A DNA stretch of 64,000 bases from an uncultured Acidobacteriota bacterium (GTDB lineage: Bacteria > Acidobacteriota > Thermoanaerobaculia > Gp7-AA8), in assembly GCA_963822445.1 (NCBI GenBank), contig CAWGHO010000002.1:96001-160000 (forward strand), written 5' to 3'. Position 1 is the stretch's first letter. Every line of letters begins with the position of its first letter. Of the stretch, positions 3,831 through 56,956 are shown piece after piece. The notes beneath the pieces are model-generated. The model did no database searches, had not been told where the DNA came from, and was given only the letters and a program-made list of their open reading frames with translations. A program made the position numbers and the translations under genes.

Positions 3831-3832
3831 TC
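3741..3832. repeat. Perfect 32-bp inverted repeat with (GAATGCA)4 arms and a 28-nt spacer
   Basis: GAATGCAGAATGCAGAATGCAGAATGCAGAAA at 3741-3772 and its exact reverse complement at 3801-3832. Inner hairpin TCCGCGAT-CTGT-ATCGCGGA. Confidence 0.95.
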
Positions 3833-5216: not shown

Positions 5217-5226
5217 TTGTAAACCT

Positions 5227-9131: not shown

Positions 9132-9132
9132 G

Positions 9133-9148
9133 ATGTAAACGGTTACAT
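9133..9148. promoter_or_regulatory. Putative LacI-family operator
   Basis: ATGTAAACGGTTACAT is a 14/16 palindrome with a central CG, lying between the divergent LacI and GH1 genes. Confidence 0.75.
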
Positions 9149-9170
9149 TTTGGGGTACGCTACTCTCCTC

Positions 9171-10514
9171 ATGGCGAAGATGTCAACGCGGTTCCCTCCT
9201 GAGTTCGTCTGGGGTGCCGCCACCTCCGCGTATCAGATCGAAGGTTCCCCCCTCGCCGACGGGGCGGGACCGAGCATCTGGCAGCGCTTCAGCCACACAC
9301 CCGGCAGGACCGCGAACGGGGAAACCGGCGACGTGGCCTGCGATCACTACAACCGCTACCGCGACGACGTCGCCCTGATGCGCGACCTCGGCCTGAACGC
9401 TTATCGCTTCAGCATTGCGTGGAGCCGCGTGTTGCCCGAGGGGACGGGCCGCGTCAACGAGAAGGGTCTCGATTTCTATCGCCGCCTCGTCGATGAGCTT
9501 CGCAATGCGGGCATCCGTCCGATGGCCACGCTCTATCACTGGGACCTGCCGGCGGCGCTGGATGATCGCGGCGGCTGGCTGAATCGCGACGTTGCGGACT
9601 GGTTCGCCGAGTACGCGACGGTGATGTATCGCGCGCTCGACGATCGCGTGGATTGGTGGGCGACCATCAACGAGCCGTGGGTTGTCATGGACGGCGGTTA
9701 CCTGCATGGACTGCTCGCGCCGGGACACAGCAATCTGTTCGAAGCGCCGATCGTGACGCACAACCTCCTGCGCGCGCATGGCCGCGCCGTGCAGGCCTAT
9801 CGCGCGGAAGGAAAGCATGCGGTCGGGCTCGTCGTGAATCTCGAGCCGAAGTATTCGGCGTCGGAGAGCGAGGAGGATCTCGCCGCGACGGCGCGCGCCG
9901 ACGCGTACATGAATCGCCACTATCTCGATCCGGTGTTTCGCGGCGCGTATCCGGAGGAGTTTCCGGACATGTGGGGCGAGGCCTGGCCGTCGTTTCCCGC
10001 GGAGGATTTCAAGGACATCACCGCGCCGGTCGACTTCATCGGCATCAATTACTACCTGCGCGGCGTGATGAAGGACGATCCGAAGACCATCGTCGAGCGC
10101 GCGACGCGGGTGCGTCAGCCGAATGCGATCTACACGACCACCGACTGGGAGGTCTATCCCGCGGCGCTGACGAAGGTCCTGCTCTGGTTTCGCGAGCGGT
10201 ACGGCGACATGCCGGTGTACATCACGGAAAACGGCTCGGCGTTTTACGACGCGCCGACAGCGATTTCGGATCCGGTCGAGGATCCGCTTCGCGTTCACTA
10301 CCTGCAGGAACACCTCCGCGCCATGGGTGAAGCTCTCGACGCCGGCGCGAACGTGCGCGGCTACTTCGCCTGGTCGCTCCTCGACAACCTCGAATGGAGC
10401 CTCGGCTACACGAAACGCTTCGGCATCGTTCACGTCGACTTTGCCACGCAGAAGCGGACGCTGAAGCGGAGTGCGCTGGTGTACCGGGATGTGATTCGAA
10501 GCGGAGCGTTGTAG
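9171..10514 (+). CDS. GH1 beta-glucosidase
   Basis: FVWGAATSAYQIEG, acid/base TINEP, nucleophile YITENG, WSLLDNLEW. Start re-called at ATG 9171 (or 9180). Confidence 0.95.
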   Translation: MAKMSTRFPPEFVWGAATSAYQIEGSPLADGAGPSIWQRFSHTPGRTANGETGDVACDHYNRYRDDVALMRDLGLNAYRFSIAWSRVLPEGTGRVNEKGLDFYRRLVDELRNAGIRPMATLYHWDLPAALDDRGGWLNRDVADWFAEYATVMYRALDDRVDWWATINEPWVVMDGGYLHGLLAPGHSNLFEAPIVTHNLLRAHGRAVQAYRAEGKHAVGLVVNLEPKYSASESEEDLAATARADAYMNRHYLDPVFRGAYPEEFPDMWGEAWPSFPAEDFKDITAPVDFIGINYYLRGVMKDDPKTIVERATRVRQPNAIYTTTDWEVYPAALTKVLLWFRERYGDMPVYITENGSAFYDAPTAISDPVEDPLRVHYLQEHLRAMGEALDAGANVRGYFAWSLLDNLEWSLGYTKRFGIVHVDFATQKRTLKRSALVYRDVIRSGAL

Positions 10515-10611
10515 ATGGAGTGCGGCGGCTCTGCCGCCGCTTTGACACCGCGCGGAGCGCGGCTCCGCCGCATCTGAAAAGCGGCGGCAGAGCCGCCGCA
10601 CTCCATCTACA
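10510..10611. repeat. REP doublet (REPIN-like), GGAGTGCGGCGGC family
   Basis: 34-bp perfect inverted arms TGTAGATGGAGTGCGGCGGCTCTGCCGCCGCTTT, each with an internal hairpin, between convergent genes. Confidence 0.9.
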
Positions 10612-13192
10612 TCGGCAACCAGTACGACAACTTCACCAGAACCACATCGTGCGACGGAGCCGTCGGGATCGCGCGCAGGTCGCGATTCAGGCTGAAGTCG
10701 CCGACGCGCTCCACGTCGGAACGGTTCTCGTTCCACACCACGTACAACGCCGAGCCGGGGCGGAACTCCCAGCGCACGACGGCGCTTCCGCGGACGCTGC
10801 GGAAATTGAAATCGCGGCTCGGCGCGGCGCCGGTGTACGGCTCGTAATCGCGAGTGCGCGCGGCCACGAGCGTGTGCGGATCGTGATAGTCGCCCGAGGC
10901 GATGAAGGGTTGGAGATAGAGCTGGAAGGAAAGCTGCGGCGTCAGCGTCCAGTCGGCGCGCGTCCCCAACTCGAACGAGCGTTGTTCCAACTCCGCGAAG
11001 AGATAGCGGATGCCGAATGTTTGCGTCGCGCCGTCGTCCTTGAATTTGTCGAGGAACTGCGTCTGCGTGTGCGACTGCGAGTAATAAGGATTCAGGCTGA
11101 GCTGGACGTTCGGCCTCGGTCTCGCGTTCAGCGACAGCCCGAAACCGCGCGTGTACGAACCGTCGTCGCTCCGGGACTGGTACGTGTTCACGTTGCCGTA
11201 GAACGTCTTGCGGTCATCGCTGCCGATGTGGCCGTCGAAACTCCACGAGCCTGGACTGCGCACCACCGGCCCGCCGCGGGTCAGGCGATCGTCGTAGCTC
11301 GACGGCGTGATGAAGACCGCCGAGCGGAACTCCCAGAAATTCTGCAGAGTGCCGAAACCGTCCGCGAAGAAGCCGCGCTCGATCGTGTCGCCGTCGAAAT
11401 TGCGGTTTTGCCAGCCACCGAACCAGAGATGCTTCTCGCGAAACTTCTTCGTCGGGTTCTGATTCACGTACTGCATCACGAAGTGCGAGGAAATGATGTC
11501 CGTGCGCTGCATGAAACCAGCGTCGTTGGTCTCGTATCCCGGCGAATACGCCTGCACCTGCACGATCGGACGCCAGATCCCGGTGGCCTTCGAGATCATG
11601 GCCTTGCCGCCCCAGCCCGTCAGCGACGTGCGGGTCTCGTCGAGCTCCACATGTCGCGCGTCCGGCCGCTGGTAATAGCGCGATGAGGATTGCTGCGTCA
11701 GCGAGATCGCTTCCTCGCTGCCGCTGACACTCGAGCCGAACAGCGAGCCTTCGAGGATCCAGGACTTGTCGCGGAAGCTCGTGTATGCATCCACACCACC
11801 GGTCAGCGCGGAATCGCGGAGCGACGTCATTTCATCCGGCAGGCGCCGATTCACCGACGTCAACAGGAAGCCGACGCGGGACCGGTCGCCGATCTCCTTC
11901 GTCAGGCGCGAGACGAAGTAATTCGTCATCGGCTCGACCTGCTCGCGTCCGAGCTCGATCTTGTCCTCGATGCCGTCTCCGTCCGCATCGACGCGCCGCC
12001 CGAATCGCGAGCGTTCCGCATCCGTCAACGCATCCAGCACGCCCAGCGACCAGCCGCCGGGCAGGCGACCGGTGATCTTTGCCGCGCCGAGGATCGTCGT
12101 TTCCGCGGGGGAGATGAAAAAGTCCGCGTCCGGCGTCACCTGCGGCGAGCGGCCGATGCGCCGCGTGTAGAAAAGGCTCGGCGCGAACATGAAATTGAAG
12201 TGACTCGGCGCCGGCGTGTCGCCGAAACGGAAGATGTTCACCCCTTCTGTGAAGAACGGCCGCTTCTCCGGATAAAAGGTCTCGAACTCGCTGAGGTTCA
12301 CGACCGCGGGATCGACTTCGACCTGTCCGAAATCGGGATTGATCGTGCCGGTCAGAGTGAGGCTCGACGTCAGCGCGTACTTCACGTCGAGCCCGGCGTC
12401 GACGCGATGATCCTGTCCGGGCAGCAGCGGATTGACGTCCTCGTCGAAACGCGTGCGCACGTCGCCGCGAGTCACCGCGTAAGGCACGAGCTCCAGCGAA
12501 CGGCCGCGGCGGATTCCCTCGATGCCGATAATGTCCGCGAAATGGGAGACGAAGCCGGTCTCCCCCTTCTTCGTATTGACGATGCGCGACCACTCGTTGA
12601 TGCGCGTGGTCCGCCGGGTGATGTTGAGACCCCAGGTGTGCACCGGCTTGTCGTGAAAGCGGAGCTGCGAATACGGGATGCGCACTTCGCCGATCCAGCC
12701 GTCAGGAACGATCTTGACCGCCGAGTCCCACACGCCGTCCCAGCTGCCGTCCTCGCCGATGTCGTTGTAGAGGACCGTGTCGACCTGCACGTTCGCCGGC
12801 GAGATCGTGAACGCGTTTCCGGAAAGGCGATCGAGCTGCGGATCGATGTTGATCGAGAGGAAGTCTGACTGCGTGAACGAATCGCGGCGCGCGAGGATGG
12901 CCGTGGGCGGCTGAGGGTCTTCCATCCTCGCGCCGAAATAGATCGCCTCGTCGTCGTACACGATGCGGATGCTCGTGCGCAGGGTCGCCGGCGCACCGTC
13001 GACGGGATCGTGCTGCGTGAAATCGGTGAACTCCGGCGCGTTCTGCCACGCCGCATCGGAGAGATCGCCGTCGAGCACCGGCGGCGCGGTCACGCGGACG
13101 GCGCGCAGTTGCGGACGATCGGGCCAGTTCGCGGCATGCGCGGCTCCGGCGGCGAGAAGAGCGAGGGCGGCGGCGAGCGCGCGTCTGTTCAT
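10607..13192 (-). CDS. CBM9-like + DUF5916 outer membrane protein
   Basis: PVLDGDLSDAAW, WDGVWDSA, TINPDFGQVEVD, YPEKRPFF, LFYTRRIG; signal peptide. Confidence 0.82.
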   Translation of the reverse strand: MNRRALAAALALLAAGAAHAANWPDRPQLRAVRVTAPPVLDGDLSDAAWQNAPEFTDFTQHDPVDGAPATLRTSIRIVYDDEAIYFGARMEDPQPPTAILARRDSFTQSDFLSINIDPQLDRLSGNAFTISPANVQVDTVLYNDIGEDGSWDGVWDSAVKIVPDGWIGEVRIPYSQLRFHDKPVHTWGLNITRRTTRINEWSRIVNTKKGETGFVSHFADIIGIEGIRRGRSLELVPYAVTRGDVRTRFDEDVNPLLPGQDHRVDAGLDVKYALTSSLTLTGTINPDFGQVEVDPAVVNLSEFETFYPEKRPFFTEGVNIFRFGDTPAPSHFNFMFAPSLFYTRRIGRSPQVTPDADFFISPAETTILGAAKITGRLPGGWSLGVLDALTDAERSRFGRRVDADGDGIEDKIELGREQVEPMTNYFVSRLTKEIGDRSRVGFLLTSVNRRLPDEMTSLRDSALTGGVDAYTSFRDKSWILEGSLFGSSVSGSEEAISLTQQSSSRYYQRPDARHVELDETRTSLTGWGGKAMISKATGIWRPIVQVQAYSPGYETNDAGFMQRTDIISSHFVMQYVNQNPTKKFREKHLWFGGWQNRNFDGDTIERGFFADGFGTLQNFWEFRSAVFITPSSYDDRLTRGGPVVRSPGSWSFDGHIGSDDRKTFYGNVNTYQSRSDDGSYTRGFGLSLNARPRPNVQLSLNPYYSQSHTQTQFLDKFKDDGATQTFGIRYLFAELEQRSFELGTRADWTLTPQLSFQLYLQPFIASGDYHDPHTLVAARTRDYEPYTGAAPSRDFNFRSVRGSAVVRWEFRPGSALYVVWNENRSDVERVGDFSLNRDLRAIPTAPSHDVVLVKLSYWLPM

Positions 13193-13283: not shown

Positions 13284-14732
13284 ATGGCGCGCTTCCGCGA
13301 CCTGCCGATCCGCAGGAAATTGATGACCGGCTTCATGTTGACGAGCCTGGTCGCGCTGATCATCACCGTCGGCGTGTTCGTCCTGTATGACCGGGCCACA
13401 TTCCAGGAGGAAGTGCTCGAGGACACGAGCGTCCTCGCGGGCATCATCGGCGAGAACGCGGTCCCGTCGCTGCTCTTCAACGATGACGAAGGGGCAAAGG
13501 CGACACTGGCCGCGCTGCGGGCCAAGCCGGACGTCCTTGCCGCTCACCTCTTCGACAACGACGGGCGTCTCTTCGCCTCCTACTCCGGCTTGACGGCGAG
13601 CCAGCCGCCGGCGCGAGTCCCCGCCGATGGACGCCGCATCGAGCCGCGCATGATCACCGTCACCAAGCCGGTCCTCTTCAACGGCAACCGCGTCGGCACA
13701 GTCCATCTGCAATCCGGCCTCGGCGCGCTTCAGGAGCGGCGCCGCAACTACCTCCTCTTGTCGGGACTCGTCCTCGCTGCCGCGGCCGCGGTCGCGCTCA
13801 TCCTCTCTTGGCTCTTCGGACGCGCGATCTCCCGCCCCATCCTTCATCTGCTCGCGGCGGAGAAGCGCGTTTCCCGCGAGAAGAATTACGACGTGCACGT
13901 CGAGCGGCAGGCCAACGACGAAGTGGGAATGCTCATCGACGGCTTCAACGACATGCTCCGCGAGATCCGCACGCGCGACGCCGAGATCGAGGAGCGCCAC
14001 ACGCAGGAGATGGCCCTGGCCCGCTCGATCCAGACCTCGGTGCTCCCGCGCACCTTCGACTTCCCCGGCTTCGACATCTCGGCGGTGATGATGCCGGCCG
14101 AGGAGGTTGGCGGGGATTTTTACGAGTTCCGTGCGGTCGAGGGAGGCGCGTGGATCGGCATCGGCGACGTCACCGGTCACGGCGTCACCTCGGGCCTGAT
14201 CATGATGATGGCCCAGTCGATGTTCACCATGCTCTGCGAGAACTCGAACGGCCACGTCTCGCCGGCGAAGTTCATCTCGCTGATGAATCGGGCCATGTTT
14301 TACAACCTGCGCTCGCGTCTCGATCAGGACAAGTTCATGACCATGGTCGTGGCGAAGATCGATCGCGACGGAAAGATGATTTACGCCGGAGCGCATACCG
14401 ACGTCCTGGTGTATCGCGCGGCCACGAAGACCATCGAGCGCCTGCCGACCGACGGAATCTGGTTGGGAATCTCGGAAGACATCGAGGCCGCTACGACAAA
14501 TCGAACGCTGAATCTCGGGCGAGGCGACATCGCCCTGTTCCACACGGACGGCGTGACCGAAGCGCGCAACAGTGCCGGCGAGTGCTTCGACATGAACCGT
14601 CTCGCCCAACAACTCACCGAGCTGCAGGCGCGTCCCGCCGCGGAGCTCGTGACCCGCATCGCCCAGACCGCATGGTCGTGGGCAGGCACGCCGACGGACG
14701 ACGTCAGTCTGCTGGCAGTGAAGAGGAGCTGA
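13284..14732 (+). CDS. Membrane PP2C/SpoIIE phosphatase with YfiN-type (CHASE8-like) periplasmic sensor and HAMP
   Basis: Two TM helices flanking the LLFND...LFASY sensor, HAMP DEVGMLIDGFNDM, PP2C motifs VGGDFY, GDVTGHG, TDGVTEA, DDVS. Confidence 0.9.
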   Translation: MARFRDLPIRRKLMTGFMLTSLVALIITVGVFVLYDRATFQEEVLEDTSVLAGIIGENAVPSLLFNDDEGAKATLAALRAKPDVLAAHLFDNDGRLFASYSGLTASQPPARVPADGRRIEPRMITVTKPVLFNGNRVGTVHLQSGLGALQERRRNYLLLSGLVLAAAAAVALILSWLFGRAISRPILHLLAAEKRVSREKNYDVHVERQANDEVGMLIDGFNDMLREIRTRDAEIEERHTQEMALARSIQTSVLPRTFDFPGFDISAVMMPAEEVGGDFYEFRAVEGGAWIGIGDVTGHGVTSGLIMMMAQSMFTMLCENSNGHVSPAKFISLMNRAMFYNLRSRLDQDKFMTMVVAKIDRDGKMIYAGAHTDVLVYRAATKTIERLPTDGIWLGISEDIEAATTNRTLNLGRGDIALFHTDGVTEARNSAGECFDMNRLAQQLTELQARPAAELVTRIAQTAWSWAGTPTDDVSLLAVKRS

Positions 14733-15217
14733 TGACGATGCAGACGCAGATCTCCAATGACTACGTCGAACTGAGATTCGGACCGCGATGGACGTACATC
14801 AGTTGCGTCCGTAAATTCGTGGCGAGCTTCTTCATGATCGGACTGGCCGACAAAGAGCGCGCCGAGCAGATCTCCATGGCCGCCTCGGAGCTCCTCGAAA
14901 ACGCAGTGAAGTACGCATCCGACGAGGATTCGTATCTGAAGATCTCCATCGCCAAGCAATCGAGCGAGGTCGATGTCTGCGTGCGCAACCGCGCCGAGCC
15001 GCATCACATCAATACGCTTCGCCGCGAGTTCGCGTTGATTCACGCCGGCGAATCGGAACAGGTTTATCTCAAGAAGATGGAAGAAGCCGCGCAGACCGAA
15101 GGGCAGAGCCGCCTCGGATTGATCCGCATCCTCTTCGAGGCCGGCGCGCGACTCAGGCTCGACGTCAACGACGGCGAGGTCTCCATTCACGCGATCTTCC
15201 CGCTGGAGCAAGCATGA
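14732..15217 (+). CDS. RsbW/slr1658-like ATP-binding (anti-sigma kinase fold) protein
   Basis: N-box SELLENAVKY and G-box SRLGL. ATG 14732 overlaps the PP2C stop and has a GAGGAG RBS. Confidence 0.8.
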   Translation: MTMQTQISNDYVELRFGPRWTYISCVRKFVASFFMIGLADKERAEQISMAASELLENAVKYASDEDSYLKISIAKQSSEVDVCVRNRAEPHHINTLRREFALIHAGESEQVYLKKMEEAAQTEGQSRLGLIRILFEAGARLRLDVNDGEVSIHAIFPLEQA

Positions 15218-15600
15218 GAGAGCCGATCAGTCCGCTCAAGGCCGAAGGGCTGTACATCATTCCGGAGATCGGCCAGGACCAGGTCATGCGCGTGGTCATG
15301 TCCGGCGCCGTGGAAATGCGCGATCCCGGCGACGCGCTCAATCCGTACTGGAACGCGATCGACGAACAGGTTCGTGAGCGTTCGATCAAGCGCGTCGAGC
15401 TCGACGTGCGCGACCTCAACTTCATGAACAGCTCGGGCATCCTCACGCTCGTCCGCTGGATCACGAAACTGAAGAACGCGCCGGCGTATCAGCTCGTGCT
15501 GGAGTACGACCGGAATGTGACCTGGCAGCGGACGAGTATCCCGACGCTCGCGAAACTCGCGCCCGCAGCCGTCGTCACATCGGAGATCAATGGGAACTGA
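15214..15600 (+). CDS. STAS-like/slr1659-like (SiaC-related) phospho-acceptor protein
   Basis: LDVRDLNFMNSSG motif with phospho-acceptor Ser; WQRTS C-terminal motif. Confidence 0.75.
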   Translation: MREPISPLKAEGLYIIPEIGQDQVMRVVMSGAVEMRDPGDALNPYWNAIDEQVRERSIKRVELDVRDLNFMNSSGILTLVRWITKLKNAPAYQLVLEYDRNVTWQRTSIPTLAKLAPAAVVTSEINGN

Positions 15601-17170
15601 TCTCACCTTCGTGGCCGGATCGTCGGCGCCTGAACTGCCGTGCAAATCGTGCGGCAGCGGCTGCAGGCCGATCGACCGCTACTGCAGTCAGTGCGGCGTG
15701 TTCAATCCGACGGGCAGTCTCGACGCGGACAACGCGTCGAACGAGATGCTGAACGCGCCGACGATCATCACTCACGACGTGCCCATTCCCGAGCGTTCCG
15801 CAACGTTCGTGTCCTCCGAGGAGGGAACGATGGTCGCGCCGCGCACGCGCCACGTGCCGCCGCCCGAAGGCGCGCGCGGACGGAATCGCAAGCGCAGCGA
15901 GGCCGAGGCGGCGAAGGCGCTCGAGGCGATGCTCGTGCCGGGCGGCGTGTTCGCGCGGCGCTACCGCATCCAACGTCTGCTGGGTGCCGGGGCGATGGGA
16001 CACGTCGCGTCGGCCATCGACGACTCGATCGATGAAGTCGTCGCCCTCAAGATTCTGTCCGTCCCCGTGCACGAGGATCCGGAGGCGTTCGAGCGCTTCA
16101 AGATGGAGCTGAAGCTCGCCCGCCGCATCCGCCATCGCAACGTCGTGCAGAGCTTCGACCTCGGATTCGCGGACGGTTATCCATACATCTCGATGGAGTA
16201 CATCGACGCGGACAACCTGTCGAAACATCTGCAACGGAAGCACAAGTTCGAGGAGAAGCAGGCCCTGGCGATCTTCCGGCAGGTGCTGCGCGGACTTCGC
16301 GCCGCGCACACACTGGGGATCATCCATCGCGACATCAAGCCGGAGAACATCCTCCTGAACAAGGACGAGGTCGCGTTCATCACCGATTTCGGCATCGCCA
16401 CCACTGCCGATCGCGTGCGCCGTCGCGAGATCGCGGGAACACCGGATTACATGGCGCCGGAACAGCTCCGCGGCGAGGATGTGCTGCCCGCTTCGGATCT
16501 GTACGCATGCGGCGTGATGCTGTACCGGATGGTCGCGGGAGCGCTGCCGTTCCGGGCGAGCACGCTCGCCGGCGTCATCGGCGCTCGCCTGCACGACGAT
16601 CCGCATCCGCTGACCGACAGCGGCGTTTCGATCGAGATGCAGGAGCTCATCGAATCGCTGTTGCGCCGCGATGTGAAGGACCGTCCGCAATCGGTCGATG
16701 AAGTACTCGATCGCGTCGATCTCATCGTGCGCCAGCAGCAAGCGAAATCGACAGGCTCGAAGCGGATGACGGTGCTCGTCGCCGACGCGAACGACGAGAC
16801 CCGCTCCTTCCTGACGAATGTGCTCGAGTCAGACGGCTATCGAGTGCTGCCGACGACCAATGCCCGCGATGCGGTGAACGCTGCGTTCGAACAGCAGCCG
16901 GCTGTGATTTTTCTCGACGCCGGAATTCGCGGCGGATTCGAATCGGCGAACGACGCCGCGTCGTCGCCCGAAACCGCCGACGGCCTGGGCTTCCTGCGCA
17001 TCGTCCGCGGCGACGAACAACTGCGGCGCGTGCCGGTGGTGGTGATGAGCGAGCACGCGCCCGCAGAATTGCAGGAGTCGTTCACGCGGGCGGGGGCGGT
17101 GGAGTTCCTGCTGAAGCCGTTCGCGGCGAGTGACGTGGCGGGGACGATGCTCCGCGCCGTTGCGAGCTAG
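15590..17170 (+). CDS. Zn-ribbon + Hanks Ser/Thr kinase + receiver domain protein
   Basis: CKSC/CSQC; GAGAMG, VALK, HRDIKPEN, DFG, APE; REC motifs VLVAD, IFLD, LKPF. Confidence 0.9.
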   Translation: MGTDLTFVAGSSAPELPCKSCGSGCRPIDRYCSQCGVFNPTGSLDADNASNEMLNAPTIITHDVPIPERSATFVSSEEGTMVAPRTRHVPPPEGARGRNRKRSEAEAAKALEAMLVPGGVFARRYRIQRLLGAGAMGHVASAIDDSIDEVVALKILSVPVHEDPEAFERFKMELKLARRIRHRNVVQSFDLGFADGYPYISMEYIDADNLSKHLQRKHKFEEKQALAIFRQVLRGLRAAHTLGIIHRDIKPENILLNKDEVAFITDFGIATTADRVRRREIAGTPDYMAPEQLRGEDVLPASDLYACGVMLYRMVAGALPFRASTLAGVIGARLHDDPHPLTDSGVSIEMQELIESLLRRDVKDRPQSVDEVLDRVDLIVRQQQAKSTGSKRMTVLVADANDETRSFLTNVLESDGYRVLPTTNARDAVNAAFEQQPAVIFLDAGIRGGFESANDAASSPETADGLGFLRIVRGDEQLRRVPVVVMSEHAPAELQESFTRAGAVEFLLKPFAASDVAGTMLRAVAS

Positions 17171-17178
17171 GGCCTCGG

Positions 17179-17272
17179 GGAGCGGGCGTCCCGCCCGCGC
17201 CGCGTGGCCGTCATCGGCCGCGCGTGTGAGCGCCGGGCGACACGCCCGGCGCGAAGCGAGCGGGACGCTCGC
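17179..17272. repeat. REP-like cluster of four GC hairpins between convergent genes
   Basis: GCGGGCG-TCC-CGCCCGC and inverted GCGAGCG-GGA-CGCTCGC flank two further hairpins. Confidence 0.75.
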
Positions 17273-17279
17273 CGTACGG

Positions 17280-20200
17280 TCAGTCGAACAGCTTTTCGGG
17301 AAGGACCACCCGCGGCAACTCCAGCGCGACGCGATACGACACCCTCGCGGGCGGCTTCTCATCGAACGTGATCCCCAGCGCCGACGGCGGAAGCGCGACG
17401 ATCTCGATCCGTTCCGGCGCAGGTCTCGGCGCCACGCGCTCATCGAGCGCCGCGAGTCCGCCGAGGTGCACCGGCGCCAATAAGCGCGTGTTGTCGAGAC
17501 CTTCAAGTGCAGCGATCAACGCGGTCCGGTCGCGCTCGGGCATCGGCGCGAAGGCGATGACAGGGAGCGGGACGGCATTGGTCGTGTGAATCACGCGCAG
17601 CTTTCCAGCGTGCTGCTGCAACAGCGGATTCGCTTCCGACACCAGCGCGGCCTCGGTCGTTCGGTAGAGCGCATTCACGACCGACGTCGCGTCGTCGGCG
17701 GTTCGCACGACCTTCGCGTCGCTTCCGCTGATGTCGCGCAAGCCTTCGGCGACGCTGATCGTGCGGCCGCGCAGATCCGCAAGCGACTGCACGTTGCTTC
17801 CCGCCGCAACGACGACCACCCGCCGATACGTCCGGCGATTCTCACGTGTGAACTGGAAACGCGGCCGGAGGTTGCTGGAACTGATGAAGTCGGAACTGGC
17901 GATCACCAGTCCGACGCGATTCGCGTTCGCGGCGATGAACGCGCGCGCATCATCTGCGCGCCTGAAGAACTCCGGACGCACGGCCACGCCTGCGGTCGTC
18001 GAAATCTGCGCGGCCAGCGCGGTGATCGTCTCGGCGAGCTTCTTCTCGTTTTCCGCCGGCGCATCGGGCATGAAGACCACCGCCGTCGGCCGCGGCTCGC
18101 TCGTCACCGGTTCCGCCTCGGGCTCCGGCGCAGGAGCACGCTCCGCCGCGAGCGCTTTGCGGATCTGATCCTCGTAACGACGCACGGCACTGTCTGCGAG
18201 TCCTGCCAGGCCCGCGGCGTCCGCCTTCGAAAACGATTCGCGCGCGTCCTCGAGTGAACCGGTCAACACGTCGAAGCTGCCGTTCAGGTAATGCGCAGCC
18301 GCACGCGCTCGCGAAGAAAGCGGAAGATCCATCGCCCGCTCGACGAGCTGCCGTCCGCGACGCACGGCCGACGAAGACACTTCGTCATTCGCGCGCGCGA
18401 GCCGCTCCACTTCCTCCGCGGCCTGCCCCAGCAACGCCACACCCAGGACCTGTTTCGCGCGATTGCAGATGTCCTCGGAACCACCGAACGACGCTTCGAG
18501 ACGTCCCGCGTTCATCACCGCTCCACCGCGTGGCTCGCACCGGCTAGCGCGATCGAGCAGCTCGGCGGCGCGATCGTATTTGCGCTCGGCCAGCGCGAGC
18601 TCGCCCGCGACAACGGCGACGTCGATCCACTCCGGATGCGCGGCTACGGCCGCGTTCACGTGCGCAAGCGCGTCCTTGTTGCGCCCGAGCTGCCACAACG
18701 CCAGACCGAGGTTGCCTCGCGTGAGCGGGTTCTGCGGAACCTGGCCGAGGATTCGCGCGGCGATGGCATGGCGTCCGGCGAGACCTTCGAGAACGCCCGC
18801 CAGCGCACCGGCCGGCTGATCGCGCTCCGCCTCGCCGGTCTTTCCTTCCGACGCGAGGAGCAGCGCGCGCACGGTTCTCAGACTGTTGAGCGTCTGCGCA
18901 TCCGCGGGCGGGTTCGTCGCAAGCAGTGCGTCGAGATGCAGGCGAGCTTCGGCGATCTCCCCCTGACGCATCAGCAGCATGACCAGGTTCGCGCGCAACG
19001 GCCAGAGCTCGCGACGAGCGGAATCGCGATTGAGAATTTCTTCGGAGAGCGCGCGCTCCTGCGCGATATCGCCATTCGCATGCGCGAGCAGGAACCGTTC
19101 GAAGACGAGCTGACGATCGGCGGGCGCAACCCGCGCCGCGATCTCGGCGATGCGCGCCGCATCGGCGGCGCGCCGATCCTGTCGATGGATGCGCAGCAAC
19201 TGCAGCAGCGAAGCGGTATCCGTCTCGCTGTAACGCACGGCTTCTTCGAACGCGAGCGCGGCCGCGGCGCGATCGCCACGCTGCAACTCGGCCCGTCCGA
19301 GAATCGGAAGCGCGATCGCGCGCACATCGGGGTCGTACCGCGGCACCCCTTCACGAAGCAGCCGCACCGCGCCCGCGGCATCGCCGCGCTTCAGGACGAT
19401 GTCGCCGAGGTGCACGTACGCGAGCGGCAACGCGGGATCGATTGCCAGTGCCCTTCGATACGCCTGCTCGGCCTCGCTTCCGCGATTGGCGTTGTAGTGA
19501 ATGAAGCCGAGGTTGTAGTGCAGCGATGCGTTCTTTGGATCGAGCCGCAGTGCCTTTTCATACGCCGCGGCGGCCATTGGCCATTGCTTCTGATTGATGT
19601 AGATCGCGCCGAGGTTCGCGTAGGCGCGGGCGTGGATCGGATCGACCTTTTCCTTCTTCGCGAACGACTGCTCGACAGGCGCCAGCGCGACTTCGTATGC
19701 CTTCAGGGCCTCGTCGAAGCGTCCCAGGTCGAACAGCACCGCGCCGAGGTTGTAGTAGGCGCGGAGGTTTTTTGCGTCCGCGTCGATGGCGTTCTGAAAC
19801 GCGGCGATCGCTTCGTCCTTGCGGCCAACGGCGTACAGGAGATTGCCGGCGCTGAAGTGATACCGCGATTCCTCAGGCTCGAGCTCGATCGCCTTCGCGA
19901 GCGCGACGAGCGCGTCGTCAGTGCGATTCAGCCCGCGAAGGATCGTGCCGCGCAGCGAGTGCAGCGCCGCGTCATCCGCCTTTTTCTCGATGGCCCGATC
20001 GACATACCCCAGCGCCTCGGCGGGCTTGCCGATCTGCTGCGCGACCGCGGCGGCGTTCGAGAGCAACGTGCGATCGGCGGGCACGTGCTCGACGCCCTTC
20101 ACGAAGACCGCGTAGGCCTCTTCGGATTTGCCACGCTCATGCAAGAGCGCGCCGAGGTTCACGTACGCGGAGGCGAGGTTCGGCGCGACTTCGAGGACGC

Positions 20201-20360
20201 GGCGGTACTTCTGAATCGCGTCATCGGCGCGGCCGGCCTCGCGTGCGCGGTCGGCTTCCTCCAGAAGACTGCGCGCGATCTCGGGCATCTCCTGCCCGCT
20301 CGATGATGCGGTCAGGAAGATGAGGATGATGAGAGCGAGAACGTGGAGGGTCGAGCGCAC
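17280..20360 (-). CDS. Exported TPR-repeat protein with C-terminal PhnD/SsuA-type binding domain
   Basis: Signal peptide, many TPR repeats (AYVNLGALL, AYYNLGAVL, LHYNLGFI), C-terminal TYRRVVVV...SLADLRGRTI. Confidence 0.8.
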   Translation of the reverse strand: MRSTLHVLALIILIFLTASSSGQEMPEIARSLLEEADRAREAGRADDAIQKYRRVLEVAPNLASAYVNLGALLHERGKSEEAYAVFVKGVEHVPADRTLLSNAAAVAQQIGKPAEALGYVDRAIEKKADDAALHSLRGTILRGLNRTDDALVALAKAIELEPEESRYHFSAGNLLYAVGRKDEAIAAFQNAIDADAKNLRAYYNLGAVLFDLGRFDEALKAYEVALAPVEQSFAKKEKVDPIHARAYANLGAIYINQKQWPMAAAAYEKALRLDPKNASLHYNLGFIHYNANRGSEAEQAYRRALAIDPALPLAYVHLGDIVLKRGDAAGAVRLLREGVPRYDPDVRAIALPILGRAELQRGDRAAAALAFEEAVRYSETDTASLLQLLRIHRQDRRAADAARIAEIAARVAPADRQLVFERFLLAHANGDIAQERALSEEILNRDSARRELWPLRANLVMLLMRQGEIAEARLHLDALLATNPPADAQTLNSLRTVRALLLASEGKTGEAERDQPAGALAGVLEGLAGRHAIAARILGQVPQNPLTRGNLGLALWQLGRNKDALAHVNAAVAAHPEWIDVAVVAGELALAERKYDRAAELLDRASRCEPRGGAVMNAGRLEASFGGSEDICNRAKQVLGVALLGQAAEEVERLARANDEVSSSAVRRGRQLVERAMDLPLSSRARAAAHYLNGSFDVLTGSLEDARESFSKADAAGLAGLADSAVRRYEDQIRKALAAERAPAPEPEAEPVTSEPRPTAVVFMPDAPAENEKKLAETITALAAQISTTAGVAVRPEFFRRADDARAFIAANANRVGLVIASSDFISSSNLRPRFQFTRENRRTYRRVVVVAAGSNVQSLADLRGRTISVAEGLRDISGSDAKVVRTADDATSVVNALYRTTEAALVSEANPLLQQHAGKLRVIHTTNAVPLPVIAFAPMPERDRTALIAALEGLDNTRLLAPVHLGGLAALDERVAPRPAPERIEIVALPPSALGITFDEKPPARVSYRVALELPRVVLPEKLFD

Positions 20361-20366
20361 CGAGGC

Positions 20367-22406
20367 TCAGAAGTCTACTTCGAGCTGCGCGAAGAATTCA
20401 CGTCCCGGACGGGTCATATCAACGCCGATCAGCGTTTCCTTCGGCTGCTCGTCGAGAAGGTTGTTTCCGAAGAAGCTCAGGCGCACGGGACGGTCCTTCG
20501 CGCCGAGGGAGAACGGAAGCTCGTAACTGACGCGCGCGTTCACGAACGTGTAGCCGTCGAGCGGCCCGTACTCGAGACCGTTGAGGCCGTAGTAGAAGTG
20601 CGGCCCGAAATACGAATCGCGCCACGACAGCTCGACAGCGCCGCGCACCCCCGCGACCGGTCCGCCGTACGCGCCGATGTTGATCTTGTTCTGCGGCGCG
20701 TACACGAATTCGGTCTGCGTCTCGTCGCCGTCCTGCGTCTGATACGCGTAGTTGGCGAAGCCGGTAATGCTGCGCGCGAAGTTGGCCCGCAACTCCACTT
20801 CCCCACCCCGAATCGTCGCCTCGGCAGGCGCATTCATGAACTGCAGGCCGGACGGTACCGGGGGCGGATTCTCCACAATGCCGATGACCATGAAGTTCTT
20901 CACGCGCGAGTTGTACAGGTCGACTTTCGCCGAGACCGTGGGTGAGATCTGATATTCGCCGCCCGCTTCGAACGTGCGGATCTCCTCCGGCTGCAGGCCG
21001 GGATTGGGGATGAAGCTGGCCAGCGGAATCGGGCCGAAGGGCGTCGTCAGCGTGAGGAATCCCGTTTCCTGAAAGAGCTCGCTGAACGTCGGGAAGCGGA
21101 ACGCGGTGCTGTAGCCGCCGCGCACCACCAGCTTGTCATTGGGCGTGTAAACGAGTGCGGCGCGCGGCGACGTCTTCGAATCGAAGATGTCGGTCTTCGC
21201 GTCATAACGAAGTCCGACCACGGCGCGCAAACGCTCGCTGCCGACGTTGAACTGATCCTGAACGTAGTAGGCCAGCTTGTCGTAGCCGGTGACGAGATCG
21301 CCGCCCTGGGAGAGCTCGTGCGAGTGATCGGCGCGATCGAGCCGGCGCGCTTCGAGTCCGACCAGCAGGTCGTGGCCCGGAATCATGTTCAGGCCCGCGC
21401 GGAAATCGCCGATGGCCTGATAGCCGTGATCGGCTTCGTGCTCGAACTCCGGTTTCTCCGGCGCGGCATGACATCCGGCGCAGTGCATGCCCTTTCGGTG
21501 AACCCACGATAAGTCGGCAGAGAAAGTGATCGGCGCCTGCTCGCGAGCGCGTTGGTACTTGAGCGTCACCATCTCCAGAGTCTGGGTGAGCTCGTGCGCG
21601 GAGGTGAAGCTCGAGCCGGGAGGCAGGCCGGGAATCGGGAACGCCTCGCTGAAGCCGCCCAGCTCGTCGTCATGACGGTAGACGGAGAGCTGGAAATCCT
21701 TGAACGTGCCTTTGGCGAAGATCTCCGTCGCCTTGTACTTCGATTCGTTTTCCAGCCAGAACTCGGCCGGAAACGCGCTGCGGGTCAGCTGCACTGACCC
21801 GAGGATCGAGCCCCAGTCGAGACGGAGGCCGTATTGCGCGGAGACCGTTGCCGTATCGCGGCTGCCGCCGAACAGCTCGACGTTGCCGCCGGCGAGATCG
21901 TCACCCGACAAAGTGACGATGTTGATCACGCCCCAGTAGGCGTTCTCGCCGTACAGCGAGGATCCGGGACCGCGAACGATCTCGATCCGCTTGATGTTCT
22001 GGATGGGAAAGAAGTCGTAGGAGGGACTGAGCGGCAGGCCGCCGGTGTCGCCGGAGTTCATCGGCGTGCCGTCGATGAGCAGGAGGATGCGATTGGAAAA
22101 CGGGTTCTGGCCGAAGCCGCGAACGTCGACGGTGGGGCCCATCGGATTCCAGCGCACGTTCACGCCGCCGACGAGCCGCAGCAGGTCGGGAACGGTCCGC
22201 GCGCCCGATTCGCTGATCTGCTTCGCGGTGATCACCGTGACCGCGCTGGGTGCCTTCGAGATGGAGATCTCGGTCTTCGTCGCCGCCTGAACCTTCAGCT
22301 GCTCTTCGCCGAAGAGGGTGACTTCACCGATCTGACCGGATGGCGCAACCTGCGCGGATGTGGAAAACGTGAACGCGGCCAACAGAATCGCGGCGGTAAT
22401 GCGCAT
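20367..22406 (-). CDS. TonB-dependent receptor carrying a CxxCH motif
   Basis: APSAVTVIT plug, IEIVRGPGSSLYG, GLRYD, C-terminal VDF; CAGCH at 21468-21482. Confidence 0.9.
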   Translation of the reverse strand: MRITAAILLAAFTFSTSAQVAPSGQIGEVTLFGEEQLKVQAATKTEISISKAPSAVTVITAKQISESGARTVPDLLRLVGGVNVRWNPMGPTVDVRGFGQNPFSNRILLLIDGTPMNSGDTGGLPLSPSYDFFPIQNIKRIEIVRGPGSSLYGENAYWGVINIVTLSGDDLAGGNVELFGGSRDTATVSAQYGLRLDWGSILGSVQLTRSAFPAEFWLENESKYKATEIFAKGTFKDFQLSVYRHDDELGGFSEAFPIPGLPPGSSFTSAHELTQTLEMVTLKYQRAREQAPITFSADLSWVHRKGMHCAGCHAAPEKPEFEHEADHGYQAIGDFRAGLNMIPGHDLLVGLEARRLDRADHSHELSQGGDLVTGYDKLAYYVQDQFNVGSERLRAVVGLRYDAKTDIFDSKTSPRAALVYTPNDKLVVRGGYSTAFRFPTFSELFQETGFLTLTTPFGPIPLASFIPNPGLQPEEIRTFEAGGEYQISPTVSAKVDLYNSRVKNFMVIGIVENPPPVPSGLQFMNAPAEATIRGGEVELRANFARSITGFANYAYQTQDGDETQTEFVYAPQNKINIGAYGGPVAGVRGAVELSWRDSYFGPHFYYGLNGLEYGPLDGYTFVNARVSYELPFSLGAKDRPVRLSFFGNNLLDEQPKETLIGVDMTRPGREFFAQLEVDF

Positions 22407-22415
22407 GCGCTGAGT

Positions 22416-23918
22416 TTACCAATCCGTCGGCTTGTAATCCTTGAGGAACTGCCCCCACATGTGCCGCCCGGTGTTGATGCCGTCGATGATGGGATCGACG
22501 ATGCGCGCGGCGCCGTCGACGATGTCGAGGGGCGGGTGGAAGCGGTGCTCGATGATCTTGCGCGCGGCGATGGCGGCCGGATCTTCATCGGTCACCCAGC
22601 CGGTATCGACGCTGTTCATGTGGATGCCGTCGGCGGCGTAGTCGGCGGCCGAGGTGCGGGTCATCATGTTCAGCGCGGCCTTGGCCATGTTCGTGTGCGG
22701 ATGACGCGTGGTTTTGCTGGTCCGGTAGAACTGCCCTTCCACCGCCGAGACGTTGACGATGTGCTTGTCGCGATTCTGCGTGCGCAACATGAGCGGCTTG
22801 AGTCGGGCGTTGATGATGAACGGCGCGACGGCGTTGACCAGCTGCACTTCCAGCAGTTCGACCGAGGACACTTCGTGGAGGAGCAGGCGCCAGGAGTTGC
22901 GGCCACGGAGATCGACCTGCTGCAGATCCTGATCGAGCCGCCCCTGCGGGAACAGCTCACTGTCCCGCACATGATCCTCGGGTAAGAGCGCGAGCTGCGA
23001 CATTTCCGCGGAAATCGCCGGCGCGCCTCCCTCGCCGAGCATGTGATAGCCGCGCAGTCCGGTGAAGCTTCCGACCAGCTTGCGCTCGTGCTCGGCCATC
23101 GTCTGCAGGGCGGTGGTCTCCCCTTCCATCATGTGCTCGTAGAACGCGGGCGGGCGGCGGACGGTCTGGCAGGCGTTGTTGATGATGAAGTCGAGACGGT
23201 CTTTCGTCGCGAGCATCTGCGCGCAGAAGGCCTCGACGCTCGGCGTGTGACGGAGGTCGAGGCCGTAAATCTCGAGCCGGTGCGACCACTCCGCAAAGTC
23301 CGGCTCAGCGGCGTAGCGCGCCGCCGAGTCTCGCGGAAAGCGCGTGGTGACGATGAGATGAGCGCCCGCGCGCAGGAGCTTGAGTCCGGCCTGATATCCG
23401 ATCTTCACCCGCCCGCCGGTCAGCAGCGCGACGCGTCCCGTGAGATCGGCGAGCTCGGTGCGCTTCATGAAGTTGAAGGCCGCGCACTCGGGACACATCT
23501 GGTCGTAGAAATGATGGACGGTCTGGTACTGCTCCTTGCAGACGTAGCAGTGGCGAGATTCGGCCGTCATCGGCGGCGCTTCCGCCACCGGTTCGCGAGC
23601 AGCCGCATTCAGAAAGTAGTTCGGCGTGTTGAAGACCGGCTTGCGCCGCAGCTCGCGAATGCCTGTCGACGTGAGCACGCTCTCGTCCTGCTGGGCGATG
23701 GCAGCCTTCCGCAGTCGCCGCGTGGCTTTCACCAGGCGCCGTCTCGAGCGAGGATCGGGATCGGAGACGACGCGCGTCGCGCGAAGCAACCGCTCGCGGT
23801 CTTCCGGCGTCAGCTCGGCCAGCAGGCCGCGATCGGCATCGATGGCCTCGAGGAATTCGGTAGCGGCGATTGCTCGCTCGCGGTTGGATGTCTCATTGTC
23901 GATTGCGCTCTTCGTCAT
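22416..23918 (-). CDS. Atypical SDR oxidoreductase with N-terminal Zn-finger
   Basis: CYVC...CPEC, ALLTGGRVKIG, INNA, NVSA, HPHTNMAK, VDTGW. Confidence 0.85.
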   Translation of the reverse strand: MTKSAIDNETSNRERAIAATEFLEAIDADRGLLAELTPEDRERLLRATRVVSDPDPRSRRRLVKATRRLRKAAIAQQDESVLTSTGIRELRRKPVFNTPNYFLNAAAREPVAEAPPMTAESRHCYVCKEQYQTVHHFYDQMCPECAAFNFMKRTELADLTGRVALLTGGRVKIGYQAGLKLLRAGAHLIVTTRFPRDSAARYAAEPDFAEWSHRLEIYGLDLRHTPSVEAFCAQMLATKDRLDFIINNACQTVRRPPAFYEHMMEGETTALQTMAEHERKLVGSFTGLRGYHMLGEGGAPAISAEMSQLALLPEDHVRDSELFPQGRLDQDLQQVDLRGRNSWRLLLHEVSSVELLEVQLVNAVAPFIINARLKPLMLRTQNRDKHIVNVSAVEGQFYRTSKTTRHPHTNMAKAALNMMTRTSAADYAADGIHMNSVDTGWVTDEDPAAIAARKIIEHRFHPPLDIVDGAARIVDPIIDGINTGRHMWGQFLKDYKPTDW

Positions 23919-24024
23919 GGTTCCACGCGGTAACACCAGGAACAGTCATGGTAGTCCTTGTCGGCAGGTGAAGGTCAGCAGGCGATCACGTCGGAGGGAC
24001 CTCGTTGAACGGATCTTTTCGGAG

Positions 24025-24053
24025 TTGACTCAGTACAAGCGGCTATGCATAAT
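24025..24053 (+). promoter_or_regulatory. Sigma70-type promoter
   Basis: TTGACT-17 nt-CATAAT upstream of a GAGGAG RBS and ATG 24120. Confidence 0.7.
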
Positions 24054-24119
24054 CCGCGAACTTTTTCCCCCACAACCCTACTTACCTCCCGCAAAAATTT
24101 TCAAGAGGAGAAGATCTGG

Positions 24120-24989
24120 ATGCAGTCTCGTGTGAGATGTGTGCTCGCAGTGGCTTCACTATTTATTGCGTTGAGTACCCTGGCGAATACCGACGTAGCC
24201 GACAGAGCCCGTGAAAAACGCACGGCCTCACTTGCCGGCAAGGGTTCGCTCGCAGTATCCGAAGCTCTCGGAGACCTCGGAATTCGCGGCATGTCATTGT
24301 CGGCAGCCGAGAACCGCCCCGTCATTACTCTTCAGGACCACGACGGATTGATCGTCGGCAACGTCACCATCGTGCGCACGTCAGGCGCGGACATCGACGT
24401 CACGTTCGAATCCGACTATGCCGACAGGTTCTCGCTTCGCTGGCACCCGTCCAGCGGCGCGTTGTACCTCGACACGGCGGGCGAAACGTTCCGGATCGAC
24501 GCCGACTTCGAGCAGAAGACGTCGCGTTACTCTGACGGTGCAAAGGCGGCTTTCGACAGCCGTGCGACGGAAATCGCATTAATTGCGGAGTCGATTGCGG
24601 AATTGAAACGACATGGCATTTTCGAGGAAGTAACGCGTGAGGTTGCTCAGACCGCGCGCAAGATCGGCAGTAACAACACTTGTTACAACTGCGAGCAGCC
24701 CGAGGATCCGGACGTCGATTGGTGGACCGGCGGCGGCTCGACGAGTGGTAGTGGCGGCGGGGGGTACTACAAGCCGGCGTGCAACGGACCTACTGTCGTT
24801 GGATTTGCGTATGCCGAGGTGACCAAATCCGTCATTTGCGAACTGGCCACGCGAGATGCGAACCTCAAATGCTGGAATCACTACTGCACGGGCTGCTGCC
24901 GTTTTCTGTCGTGCGACGCCTATTGTCAGTATGGAGACTATATGTGCGTGATGGGATCGATCTACGGCCAATCCTGTTCCTACAGATGA
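24120..24989 (+). CDS. Secreted hypothetical protein with Cys-rich C-terminal domain
   Basis: Signal peptide, Gly/Ser linker, 12 Cys in the C-terminal third; own promoter, RBS and terminator. Confidence 0.75.
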   Translation: MQSRVRCVLAVASLFIALSTLANTDVADRAREKRTASLAGKGSLAVSEALGDLGIRGMSLSAAENRPVITLQDHDGLIVGNVTIVRTSGADIDVTFESDYADRFSLRWHPSSGALYLDTAGETFRIDADFEQKTSRYSDGAKAAFDSRATEIALIAESIAELKRHGIFEEVTREVAQTARKIGSNNTCYNCEQPEDPDVDWWTGGGSTSGSGGGGYYKPACNGPTVVGFAYAEVTKSVICELATRDANLKCWNHYCTGCCRFLSCDAYCQYGDYMCVMGSIYGQSCSYR

Positions 24990-45657: not shown

Positions 45658-45683
45658 CCTCGGGTGCTATGATTCTGGCACGA

Positions 45684-56916: not shown

Positions 56917-56956
56917 TATCCGGCCTGCGGCGAGGCGTTCAACGCGGGGTAATCCC

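Follow-up and report, generated by a model that had tools for sequence, protein, structure and literature searches.

We describe here a candidate trans-envelope signalling system encoded by six genes (g1 to g6) of an uncultured member of the Acidobacteriota, at positions 13284-22406 of a 64,000-nucleotide stretch of contig CAWGHO010000002.1 (GenBank assembly GCA_963822445.1); this whole stretch is called the window in what follows. Open reading frame (ORF) calls place the six genes in two convergent, closely packed sets. The G+C content of the window is 62-67% and the nearest homologues are found in metagenome-assembled genomes (MAGs) of the Thermoanaerobaculia (Acidobacteriota). An earlier note on this DNA, made from the letters alone, had described six genes, their domains and two convergent, tightly coupled operons, all of which is borne out by the ORF calls and by Pfam and NCBIfam matches. 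It had also remarked that no sigma factor gene is nearby, and domains of sigma factors and of histidine kinases were indeed absent from the scanned ORFs of the window, a set that covers small ORFs less than exhaustively. The principal features are as follows.

13284-14732, + strand: g1, 482 aa, a membrane sensor phosphatase consisting of transmembrane segment 1, CHASE8, transmembrane segment 2, HAMP and PP2C (SpoIIE family)
14732-15217, + strand: g2, an slr1658-like GHKL protein, RsbW/SiaB-like, with its ATG at 14732
15214-15600, + strand: g3, an slr1659-like STAS-like protein of a single domain
15590-17170, + strand: g4, a putative output protein with a Cys-rich (Zn-ribbon-like) N-terminus, a Hanks Ser/Thr kinase and a receiver domain (REC)
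17280-20360, - strand: g5, 1026 aa, an exported tetratricopeptide repeat (TPR) protein fused to a C-terminal PhnD/BstB-like solute-binding domain
17283-18128, - strand: the PhnD/BstB-like domain of g5, residues 745-1026 (Pfam PF12974)
20367-22406, - strand: g6, a TonB-dependent receptor (TBDR) with Plug and barrel
21468-21482, - strand: the CAGCH (CxxCH) motif of g6, residues 309-313, in a long inter-strand loop

On the plus strand successive genes overlap by 1 nt (g1/g2, TGATG), 4 nt (g2/g3) and 11 nt (g3/g4); on the minus strand g6 and g5 are spaced by 6 bp, and a gap of 109 bp separates the converging ends of g4 and g5. A scan for terminators and promoters returned sites no commoner than in shuffled sequence and left the convergent gap empty. 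Public annotation of all of the components is "hypothetical" or generic, the g3 orthologues being named "hypothetical protein", g1 "RsbU-like phosphatase" and g6 "iron complex receptor".

For comparison, loci were drawn from one genome scan with an alignment of g1 homologues (A1), in which 599 stretches matched; of the 511 among them that encode relatives, the 80 best were retained. Full-length or truncated orthologues of g1, at 62-70% identity, are found at 29 of these loci (L001-L029), and a further 37 match the sensor half alone, their sensors being CHASE8-HAMP histidine kinases that are often hybrid.

The sensor phosphatase operon

The first gene of the plus-strand set encodes a protein in which Pfam recognises CHASE8 (61.4 bits), HAMP (30.7 bits) and SpoIIE/PP2C (PF07228, 125.9 bits), and the PP2C catalytic motifs are present in its translation. 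Two hydrophobic segments seen by hydropathy (residues 16-34 and 157-175) bracket the CHASE8 domain (approximately residues 36-154), which for that reason should be periplasmic. Homologues of g1 number 1719 at E<=1e-10 among the 8000 candidates scored. Residues 8-229 pass the NCBIfam model NF053592, "sensor histidine kinase, YfiR-like protein-associated" (210.2 bits against a cut-off of 194), and the transmitter that follows them is of the SpoIIE/PP2C type instead of the histidine kinase or GGDEF type that goes with that class. No adjacent DUF4154 (YfiR-like) gene was matched among the scanned ORFs of the window, where g5 ends in PF12974. The SiaA equivalog model gives g1 88.3 bits, against a cut-off of 700.

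The two small proteins encoded next have more distant affiliations. By Pfam, g2 matches HATPase_c_2 (29.2 bits, cut-off 27.4) and DUF6272 (27.3 bits, cut-off 26.6), and the STAS match of g3 is weak (20.5 bits, below the cut-off of 22.6). Their best NCBIfam matches are to the paired slr1658 and slr1659 superfamily regulators (NF047703/NF047705), at 68.1 bits for g2 and 56.1 bits for g3, both below a cut-off of 100. Scores on the RsbW and SpoIIAA equivalogs fall far under their cut-offs (g2 reaches 22.8 bits on the RsbW model, which has a cut-off of 145), and the SiaB-family model gives g2 16.2 bits against 85. Searches of the PDB with single sequences of g2, g3 and the PhnD-like domain of g5 returned only matches at E>0.2, the useful ones coming with family profiles. 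For g2 these were RsbW (6e-5), SpoIIAB (4e-3) and chain 6kko_A (5e-3), which we take to be SiaB; for g3 they were the anti-sigma antagonist TM1442 (1.4e-6), SpoIIAA (2e-4) and the DUF1987 chains 6k4f and 6kko_C (~0.8), presumably SiaC. By these profile comparisons g2 and g3 are nearer to RsbW/SpoIIAA and to the slr1658/slr1659 superfamilies than to SiaB/SiaC.

Both families have invariant residues. In an alignment that includes distant relatives of g3, residues G31, S73, S74, W104 and Q105 are invariant (the last four in 14/14 sequences) and N72 is nearly so (at least 90% of sequences), forming an NSSG motif within F-[ML]-N-S-S-G, which resembles the SpoIIAA phosphoserine motif and which we assume to be its equivalent. 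The invariant motifs of g2 are ELxENAxKY, which is N-box-like, and SxLGL, which is G2-like, on the GHKL N/G1/G2 box definitions that we presume to apply. A DxGxG G1 box is absent from g2, and without this canonical box its kinase activity is uncertain. We presume, on these resemblances, that g2 is the serine kinase of g3 and that g3 is a phospho-switch. Elsewhere in the sample, slr1658/slr1659-like pairs with a PP2C adjoin GGDEF genes (L035, L040), a gene for a methyl-accepting chemotaxis protein (MCP; L037), methyltransferase-like genes (L038, L041, L044) and a Pkinase gene (L044), a variety of neighbours, none of them a sigma gene, which marks the switch as a portable module. The idea in the earlier note that a Hanks kinase here replaces a cyclase output agrees with the GGDEF neighbours of such pairs, and agrees less well with the distance of g2 and g3 from SiaB and SiaC.

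A separate observation from the same loci is a recurrent set of four genes, in which an slr1658-like and an slr1659-like gene are joined by a gene for a protein with a methyltransferase domain (467 aa long at L038 and at L044) and, after it, a PP2C gene; the set occurs in Spirochaetes, Myxococcus and an unclassified MAG (L038:7033-10720, L044:6824-10729 and L041:6036-9339). This set appears to be another uncharacterised partner-switch output.

In g4, Pfam finds Pkinase (186.8 bits) and Response_reg (45.0 bits) and no DNA-binding domain, and the translation of the kinase contains VALK, HRD, DFG and APE motifs. The receiver (16745-17170, + strand) was judged by residue definitions that we assume to hold for it: the phospho-acceptor Asp is invariant in 22/22 orthologues and the Lys is kept, conservation does not extend to the acidic pair or the Ser/Thr, and an insertion of ~20 residues follows the Asp. 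It may be an atypical receiver or a pseudo-receiver. The order of the operon is constant, with g2, g3 and the Pkinase gene following the PP2C gene at all 25 of the Thermoanaerobaculia loci that have enough contig; in the remaining 4 of the 29 orthologous loci the contig ends within ~160 bp of the PP2C gene. At two of the loci that match the sensor half alone (L032, L034), a REC-Pkinase protein is encoded just upstream of the sensor, with its stop overlapping the start region of the sensor gene, so that receiver-bearing Hanks kinases accompany both kinds of transmitter.

The envelope genes and their association with CHASE8 sensors

The product of g5 starts with a hydrophobic N-terminus, continues with many TPRs and closes with a Phosphonate-bd domain. 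Its repeats match ordinary TPR families and gave no match to the TatT family. Scanned alone, the C-terminal domain scores 47.8 bits on PF12974 (cut-off 27) and 11.1 bits on the PhnD equivalog TIGR03431 (cut-off 261), which makes it a PhnD-type domain outside the PhnD equivalog. An AlphaFold model of the domain shows the two-lobed binding fold with a pLDDT of 90.4, and its top Foldseek matches are PtxB, ArrX, BstB, PhnD and AioX, with TM-scores of ~0.6-0.7 (for PtxB, E=5.7e-16 and TM-scores of 0.63 and 0.69). A profile of 54 sequences (A6) matched BstB (7t1m) best among PDB entries (1.2e-16), followed by ArrX (1.4e-11), PtxB (8e-7) and PhnD (3e-3); by this profile the nearest solved relative of the domain is the sterol-binding protein BstB. 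The family is small, with 83 representatives at E<=1e-3 among 1.84 billion and 61 at E<=1e-10, and its members mostly stand alone (320-358 aa), a few being TPR fusions (796-1021 aa). The lineage of the window has the TPR and PhnD parts in one protein, and elsewhere they are split. A tail of ~50 residues follows the binding fold (17283-17440, - strand; alignment A4; pLDDT 58-82) and ends in ELPxVxIPE(x)LF, a motif common to the fused and stand-alone PhnD-like forms.

No ABC or TRAP permease gene or other inner-membrane transporter gene lies beside g5 and g6 in the window, where the nearest ABC genes, at 1-3830, come with a sugar-type solute-binding protein; the want of a permease beside g5 is in keeping with a binding domain that serves sensing and not uptake. 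At one other locus an ORF of the MMPL/Patched/sterol-sensing type (L079:5778-8564) is found ~1.4 kb upstream of the sensor, and this ORF and the relationship to BstB together hint at a hydrophobic ligand. Homology of the g5 domain to YfiR/DUF4154 was considered and rejected, none being detectable (hhalign probability 1.2%). Complex prediction for CHASE8 (g1 residues 36-154) with the PhnD-like domain (piece residues 12-282), run without controls, gave scores of 0.21, 0.39 and 0.30, with a median of 0.30 against a mark of 0.32, values that we take as evidence neither for binding nor against it.

The Plug of g6 begins at residue 49, directly after a signal-peptide-like N-terminus, and no match was found in g6 to the STN extension of FecA-type signalling receptors. 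Its model (pLDDT 74) has a generic TonB-dependent transporter fold, for which Foldseek returned only generic matches (at the top Cir, ChuA/ShuA and BtuB) and no clue to a ligand, and the TOL_0244 TBDR model gives 115 bits against a cut-off of 645. The distinguishing feature of this receptor family is the motif G-M-H-C-A-[GA]-C-H-A (GMHCAGCHA in g6), which is invariant in 120/120 homologues at 58% identity or more (P0206-P0325) and whose two cysteines are the sole cysteines in 96 of them. The TBDRs of all six PhnD-type loci (the window, L004, L010, L032, L034 and L079) have a CxxCH, and none of the 27 other TBDR ORFs of the fetched loci has one. In the secondary structure of the model the motif falls within the 16 residues that connect strand 293-307 to strand 324-339, and this connection is in register with the long loops and not with the short turns, from which we infer a surface-side loop. 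The CxxCH may serve to attach c-type haem, to bind a metal or to form a redox disulphide. Titles and the starts of abstracts in the open-access literature yielded no TBDR described with such a motif; a selenoprotein TBDR with a CxxU motif is on record in PMC13188914.

The association of such envelope proteins with CHASE8 sensors can be followed through the sample. The earlier note had remarked that YfiN-type sensor domains are often accompanied by a TBDR and by YfiR, a periplasmic protein with a binding fold, and this agrees both with the NF053592 match of g1 and with the 37 sensor-half loci, 27 of which have a DUF4154 (YfiR/HmsC-like) ORF immediately upstream on the same strand, 22 of these 27 having a TBDR in the locus as well. 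The search for such partners covered only same-strand ORFs of at least 100 aa that end near the sensor start, and the 7/37 loci with neither type of partner may be under-called as a consequence of that limited scan. The other 3/37 (L032, L034 and L079) have no DUF4154 ORF; they have instead a TBDR related to g6 at E 1e-225 to 1e-278, and separate genes for a TPR protein and for a PhnD-like protein, the latter with a hydrophobic N-terminus of its own. At L032 and L034 the three run towards the sensor operon, an arrangement also seen in the window. At L079 they share the strand of the sensor, in the order sensor-TBDR-TPR-PhnD-(REC-REC-cyclase), and the gaps are small enough for one operon.

Among the g1 orthologues, a convergent TPR-PhnD gene lies downstream of the kinase gene, at a distance of 18 bp to 5.9 kb, in 8 of the 14 loci with at least 3 kb of downstream sequence. 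The other six (L014, L015, L018, L019, L021 and L023) have no TPR-PhnD or TBDR gene within ~7.6 kb downstream or ~10 kb upstream. Where sequence extends beyond TPR-PhnD, a TBDR is beside it in only two of six other loci (L004, L010), its place being taken by a GATase_5 gene in L013, L025 and L026 and by a beta-propeller-like gene in L028. Two observations may be recorded alongside these counts. In the sub-clade without TPR-PhnD adjacency, genes for a Fur-family regulator and an FTR1 iron permease come directly after the kinase-REC gene (L018:4108-5395 and L023:14142-15477, with similar ORFs in L021). An ECF-type sigma gene, probably unrelated, is found 2-3 kb beyond TPR-PhnD at L013:20073-20696 and L028:19427-20053, with GATase_5 and/or beta-propeller-like genes between.

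A quick maximum-likelihood tree of 68 sensor domains (midpoint root, SH-aLRT support only) was also computed, leaving out 13 loci at which the CHASE8-HAMP match is partial or absent (L027, L030, L031, L033, L035, L037-L041, L044, L047 and L048). One group in this tree (SH-aLRT 87) unites all 12 sensors that have a PhnD partner with the 20 other Thermoanaerobaculia sensors, and no DUF4154-partnered sensor falls inside it; the histidine-kinase sensors of L032 and L034 are sister to the PP2C clade (support 99). On this grouping the type of partner follows the sensor domain and not the transmitter, which is what a physical or functional coupling of partner and sensor predicts. The suggestion that TPR-PhnD replaces YfiR gains in this way from the tree and from L032, L034 and L079; it is limited by the want of homology to DUF4154 and by adjacency in only the eight loci counted above. 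Comparative genomics supports the link between the two halves, short of proof.

The surroundings of the six genes are glycan-utilisation and housekeeping genes. An SDR-family oxidoreductase found by domain scan (22416-23936, - strand) is encoded 9 bp upstream of g6; it has an N-terminal extension of ~160 residues holding CxxC...CxxC and may be co-transcribed with g6. It was considered as a member of the system and set aside, no SDR match having been found beside the TBDR in L004, L010, L032, L034 or L079. A glycan-utilisation cluster occupies 1-13192 and encodes a sugar ABC transporter with SBP_bac_1, a putative glucoamylase, a CarboxypepD_reg-type TonB-dependent receptor, a GH1 enzyme with a long N-terminal extension and a DUF5916/CBM9 protein. 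Four large ORFs with coding-like GC3 had no Pfam match at the thresholds used: 56711-59770 (+), 44131-45666 (-), 47104-48498 (+) and 24045-24989 (+), of 1019, 511, 464 and 314 aa, respectively.

A proposed pathway and its rivals

We propose, with moderate confidence, that the six genes form one envelope-to-cytoplasm signalling pathway of interchangeable modules. As the observations are of genes, domains, motifs, conservation and co-occurrence, the binding, the phosphotransfer, the ligand and the direction of flow are all inferred. On the input side, g6 and the periplasmic g5 would capture or relay a ligand, perhaps a hydrophobic compound or a metal or redox species, and would modulate the periplasmic CHASE8 domain of g1, in the role of the TBDR and the DUF4154 protein at related CHASE8 sensors. 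Judging from the domain order, CHASE8 and HAMP would in turn control the cytoplasmic PP2C of g1. Family resemblance suggests that g2 would phosphorylate g3 at S73 of the NSSG motif and that the PP2C of g1 would remove the phosphate. The strictly conserved and translationally coupled operon suggests an output in which g3, depending on its phosphorylation state, would leave g2, bind g4 and alter its kinase activity; such a step would parallel the activation of SiaD by SiaC and would involve no sigma factor.

A number of observations weigh against this proposal. The convergent orientation excludes co-transcription of the two halves in the window, six of the 14 informative orthologous loci lack the envelope genes, and a TBDR flanks TPR-PhnD in only two of six other loci. 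The g5 domain has no detectable kinship with YfiR, and its closest solved relative is a lipid carrier, which fits transport as well as sensing. On the cytoplasmic side, g2 and g3 reach their best NCBIfam matches below cut-off, the G1 box is missing from g2, and the g4 receiver keeps its Asp, so that some histidine kinase could be the real input of g4. The sample, moreover, is the best 80 of 511 relatives, and close genomes share gene order by descent, so that raw co-occurrence counts are inflated by shared ancestry.

Several of these points would be expected if two unrelated systems happened to be neighbours, with g5 and g6 serving TBDR uptake or the Bst-like shuttling of a hydrophobic molecule between membranes and the PP2C operon sensing through CHASE8 alone. 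Adjacency absent in 6/14, the missing TBDR in 4/6, the convergent orientation, the sterol carrier BstB as best solved relative (E=1.2e-16; according to PMC10942540, a partner of the TPR-like BstC and the MMPL pump BstA) and the MMPL/Patched ORF of L079 all lean that way. We nevertheless regard this explanation as rather unlikely, because the same TBDR, TPR and PhnD-like genes stand beside CHASE8-HAMP sensors with a different transmitter in three further loci, one of them co-directional, because the tree separates the PhnD-partnered from the DUF4154-partnered sensors, and because the window has no inner-membrane transporter gene beside g5 and g6. The halves might also be linked in the reverse sense, the PP2C/switch/kinase pathway regulating TBDR/TPR-PhnD transport, for example by phosphorylating a regulator or proteins that partner the transport components. 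Regulators often adjoin the genes they control, co-occurrence data are silent on direction, and the lack of a DNA-binding domain in g4 implies that its targets are proteins. This reversal seems to us improbable, given that the sensor family is itself defined by its association with periplasmic partners (NF053592, and DUF4154 at most of the sensor-half loci), that the type of partner tracks the clade of the sensor domain and not the type of output, and that in YfiBNR, as set out in PMC4887326 and PMC4655355, the partner acts on the sensor.

A third alternative concerns the cytoplasmic half and supposes a classical RsbU/RsbV/RsbW switch whose sigma target is encoded elsewhere, g4 being separate and run through its receiver by an unlinked histidine kinase. 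The closer profile matches of g2 and g3 to RsbW/SpoIIAB and SpoIIAA/TM1442 than to SiaB/SiaC speak for it, as does the invariant phospho-acceptor Asp of the receiver. We give it little credence: no sigma-factor domain was found in the scanned ORFs of the window, the 25 orthologous loci keep a kinase gene overlapping g3 and not a sigma gene, relatives of the g2/g3 pair adjoin GGDEF, MCP, methyltransferase-like and kinase genes, and the best NCBIfam matches are to slr1658/slr1659 and not to RsbW. The proposal of a single inward pathway can, finally, be extended in a direction that we consider speculative and quite unlikely to hold in full, namely that the CxxCH TBDR does the sensing at the outer membrane, its signal being redox-active or a metal or haem and sitting on a surface-side loop. 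The TBDR, a TPR scaffold and a carrier of the BstB/PhnD type would then make up a trans-envelope relay not described before, which would feed CHASE8 sensors whose transmitters are interchangeable (histidine kinase or PP2C switch) and would converge on Hanks kinases with receivers. Such a relay, if it exists, would carry signals from the outer membrane with no need of a FecA-type extension or of a sigma/anti-sigma pair.

Significance and comparison with known systems

Partner switches are textbook regulators of sigma factors, and the non-sigma targets known to us are few (SiaD, SypE/SypA and a cyanobacterial glycosyltransferase). If the switch described here does drive a eukaryote-like Ser/Thr kinase, two major bacterial signalling chemistries would be joined. 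The locus also offers a handle on an abundant and unstudied arrangement, that of a CHASE8 sensor with a TBDR and a periplasmic partner, in which the partner is swappable (YfiR-like, or TPR with PhnD-like) while the sensor clade tracks it. Siderophores and oxyanions are the usual ligands, and both the invariant CxxCH of the TBDR and the PhnD-fold domain nearest to a sterol carrier point to a class of ligand different from these. In the open-access literature we found no paper that pairs DUF4154 with "TonB-dependent", none on such partners among the titles and abstracts of CHASE8 papers, and, among the papers listed on partner switching and STAS, none with the term "Hanks-type"; nine papers name slr1658/slr1659, all of them outside title and abstract.

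Two solute-binding systems bear on g5. AioX, of AioXSR, is presented in PMC5908839 as a PhnD-family binding protein with a sensory role that is encoded without a permease and serves a membrane sensor. AioX and ArrX are like g5 in being PhnD-fold periplasmic proteins without a permease, and both were among the Foldseek or profile matches; they differ in that the g5-type domain is fused to, or lies beside, a long TPR protein and a TBDR, in that the sensor here is CHASE8-HAMP-PP2C in place of a histidine kinase, and in sequence, the relationship being distant (1.4e-11 for ArrX). BstB of Methylococcus capsulatus is, according to PMC10942540, a sterol-binding PF12974 protein that works with the TPR-like periplasmic BstC and the MMPL pump BstA. 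The likeness to BstABC lies in a PF12974 binding protein with a TPR-like partner, whereas the window has no MMPL pump or sterol genes and has a TBDR and a sensor instead.

For the cytoplasmic half, g1 to g3 resemble the RsbU-RsbV-RsbW and SpoIIE-SpoIIAA-SpoIIAB systems in combining a PP2C of the SpoIIE family with a GHKL-like protein and a STAS-like protein, the conserved serine of the latter being placed much as in the SpoIIAA phosphoserine motif. They differ from those systems in that no sigma gene was found near the present operon, in that g2 has no G1 box and in equivalog scores far below the cut-offs. Nearer in logic is SiaABCD of Pseudomonas aeruginosa, which, as described in 10.1101/674879 and PMC8457831, combines a membrane HAMP-PP2C, a small GHKL-type kinase, a phospho-switch and a non-sigma enzyme target in one operon. 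From SiaABCD the present system is separated by g1 to g3 falling outside the SiaA, SiaB and SiaC families, by a target that would be a Hanks kinase-REC instead of a diguanylate cyclase, and by its CHASE8 sensor. At the envelope the counterparts are YfiBNR (the TpbB/DgcN system) and the triads of TBDR, DUF4154 protein and CHASE8-HAMP-histidine-kinase (NF053592, NF053590), which likewise have a CHASE8-HAMP sensor with exported and outer-membrane partners. Here, unlike in those systems, the place of DUF4154 is taken by a non-homologous TPR and PhnD/BstB-like protein, the TBDR is of a different, CxxCH-bearing family, and the output is a PP2C and not a GGDEF protein or histidine kinase. As we read it, the system follows YfiBNR in its envelope logic and SiaABCD in its cytoplasmic logic, belongs by its protein families to neither, and is a new combination of known signalling parts.

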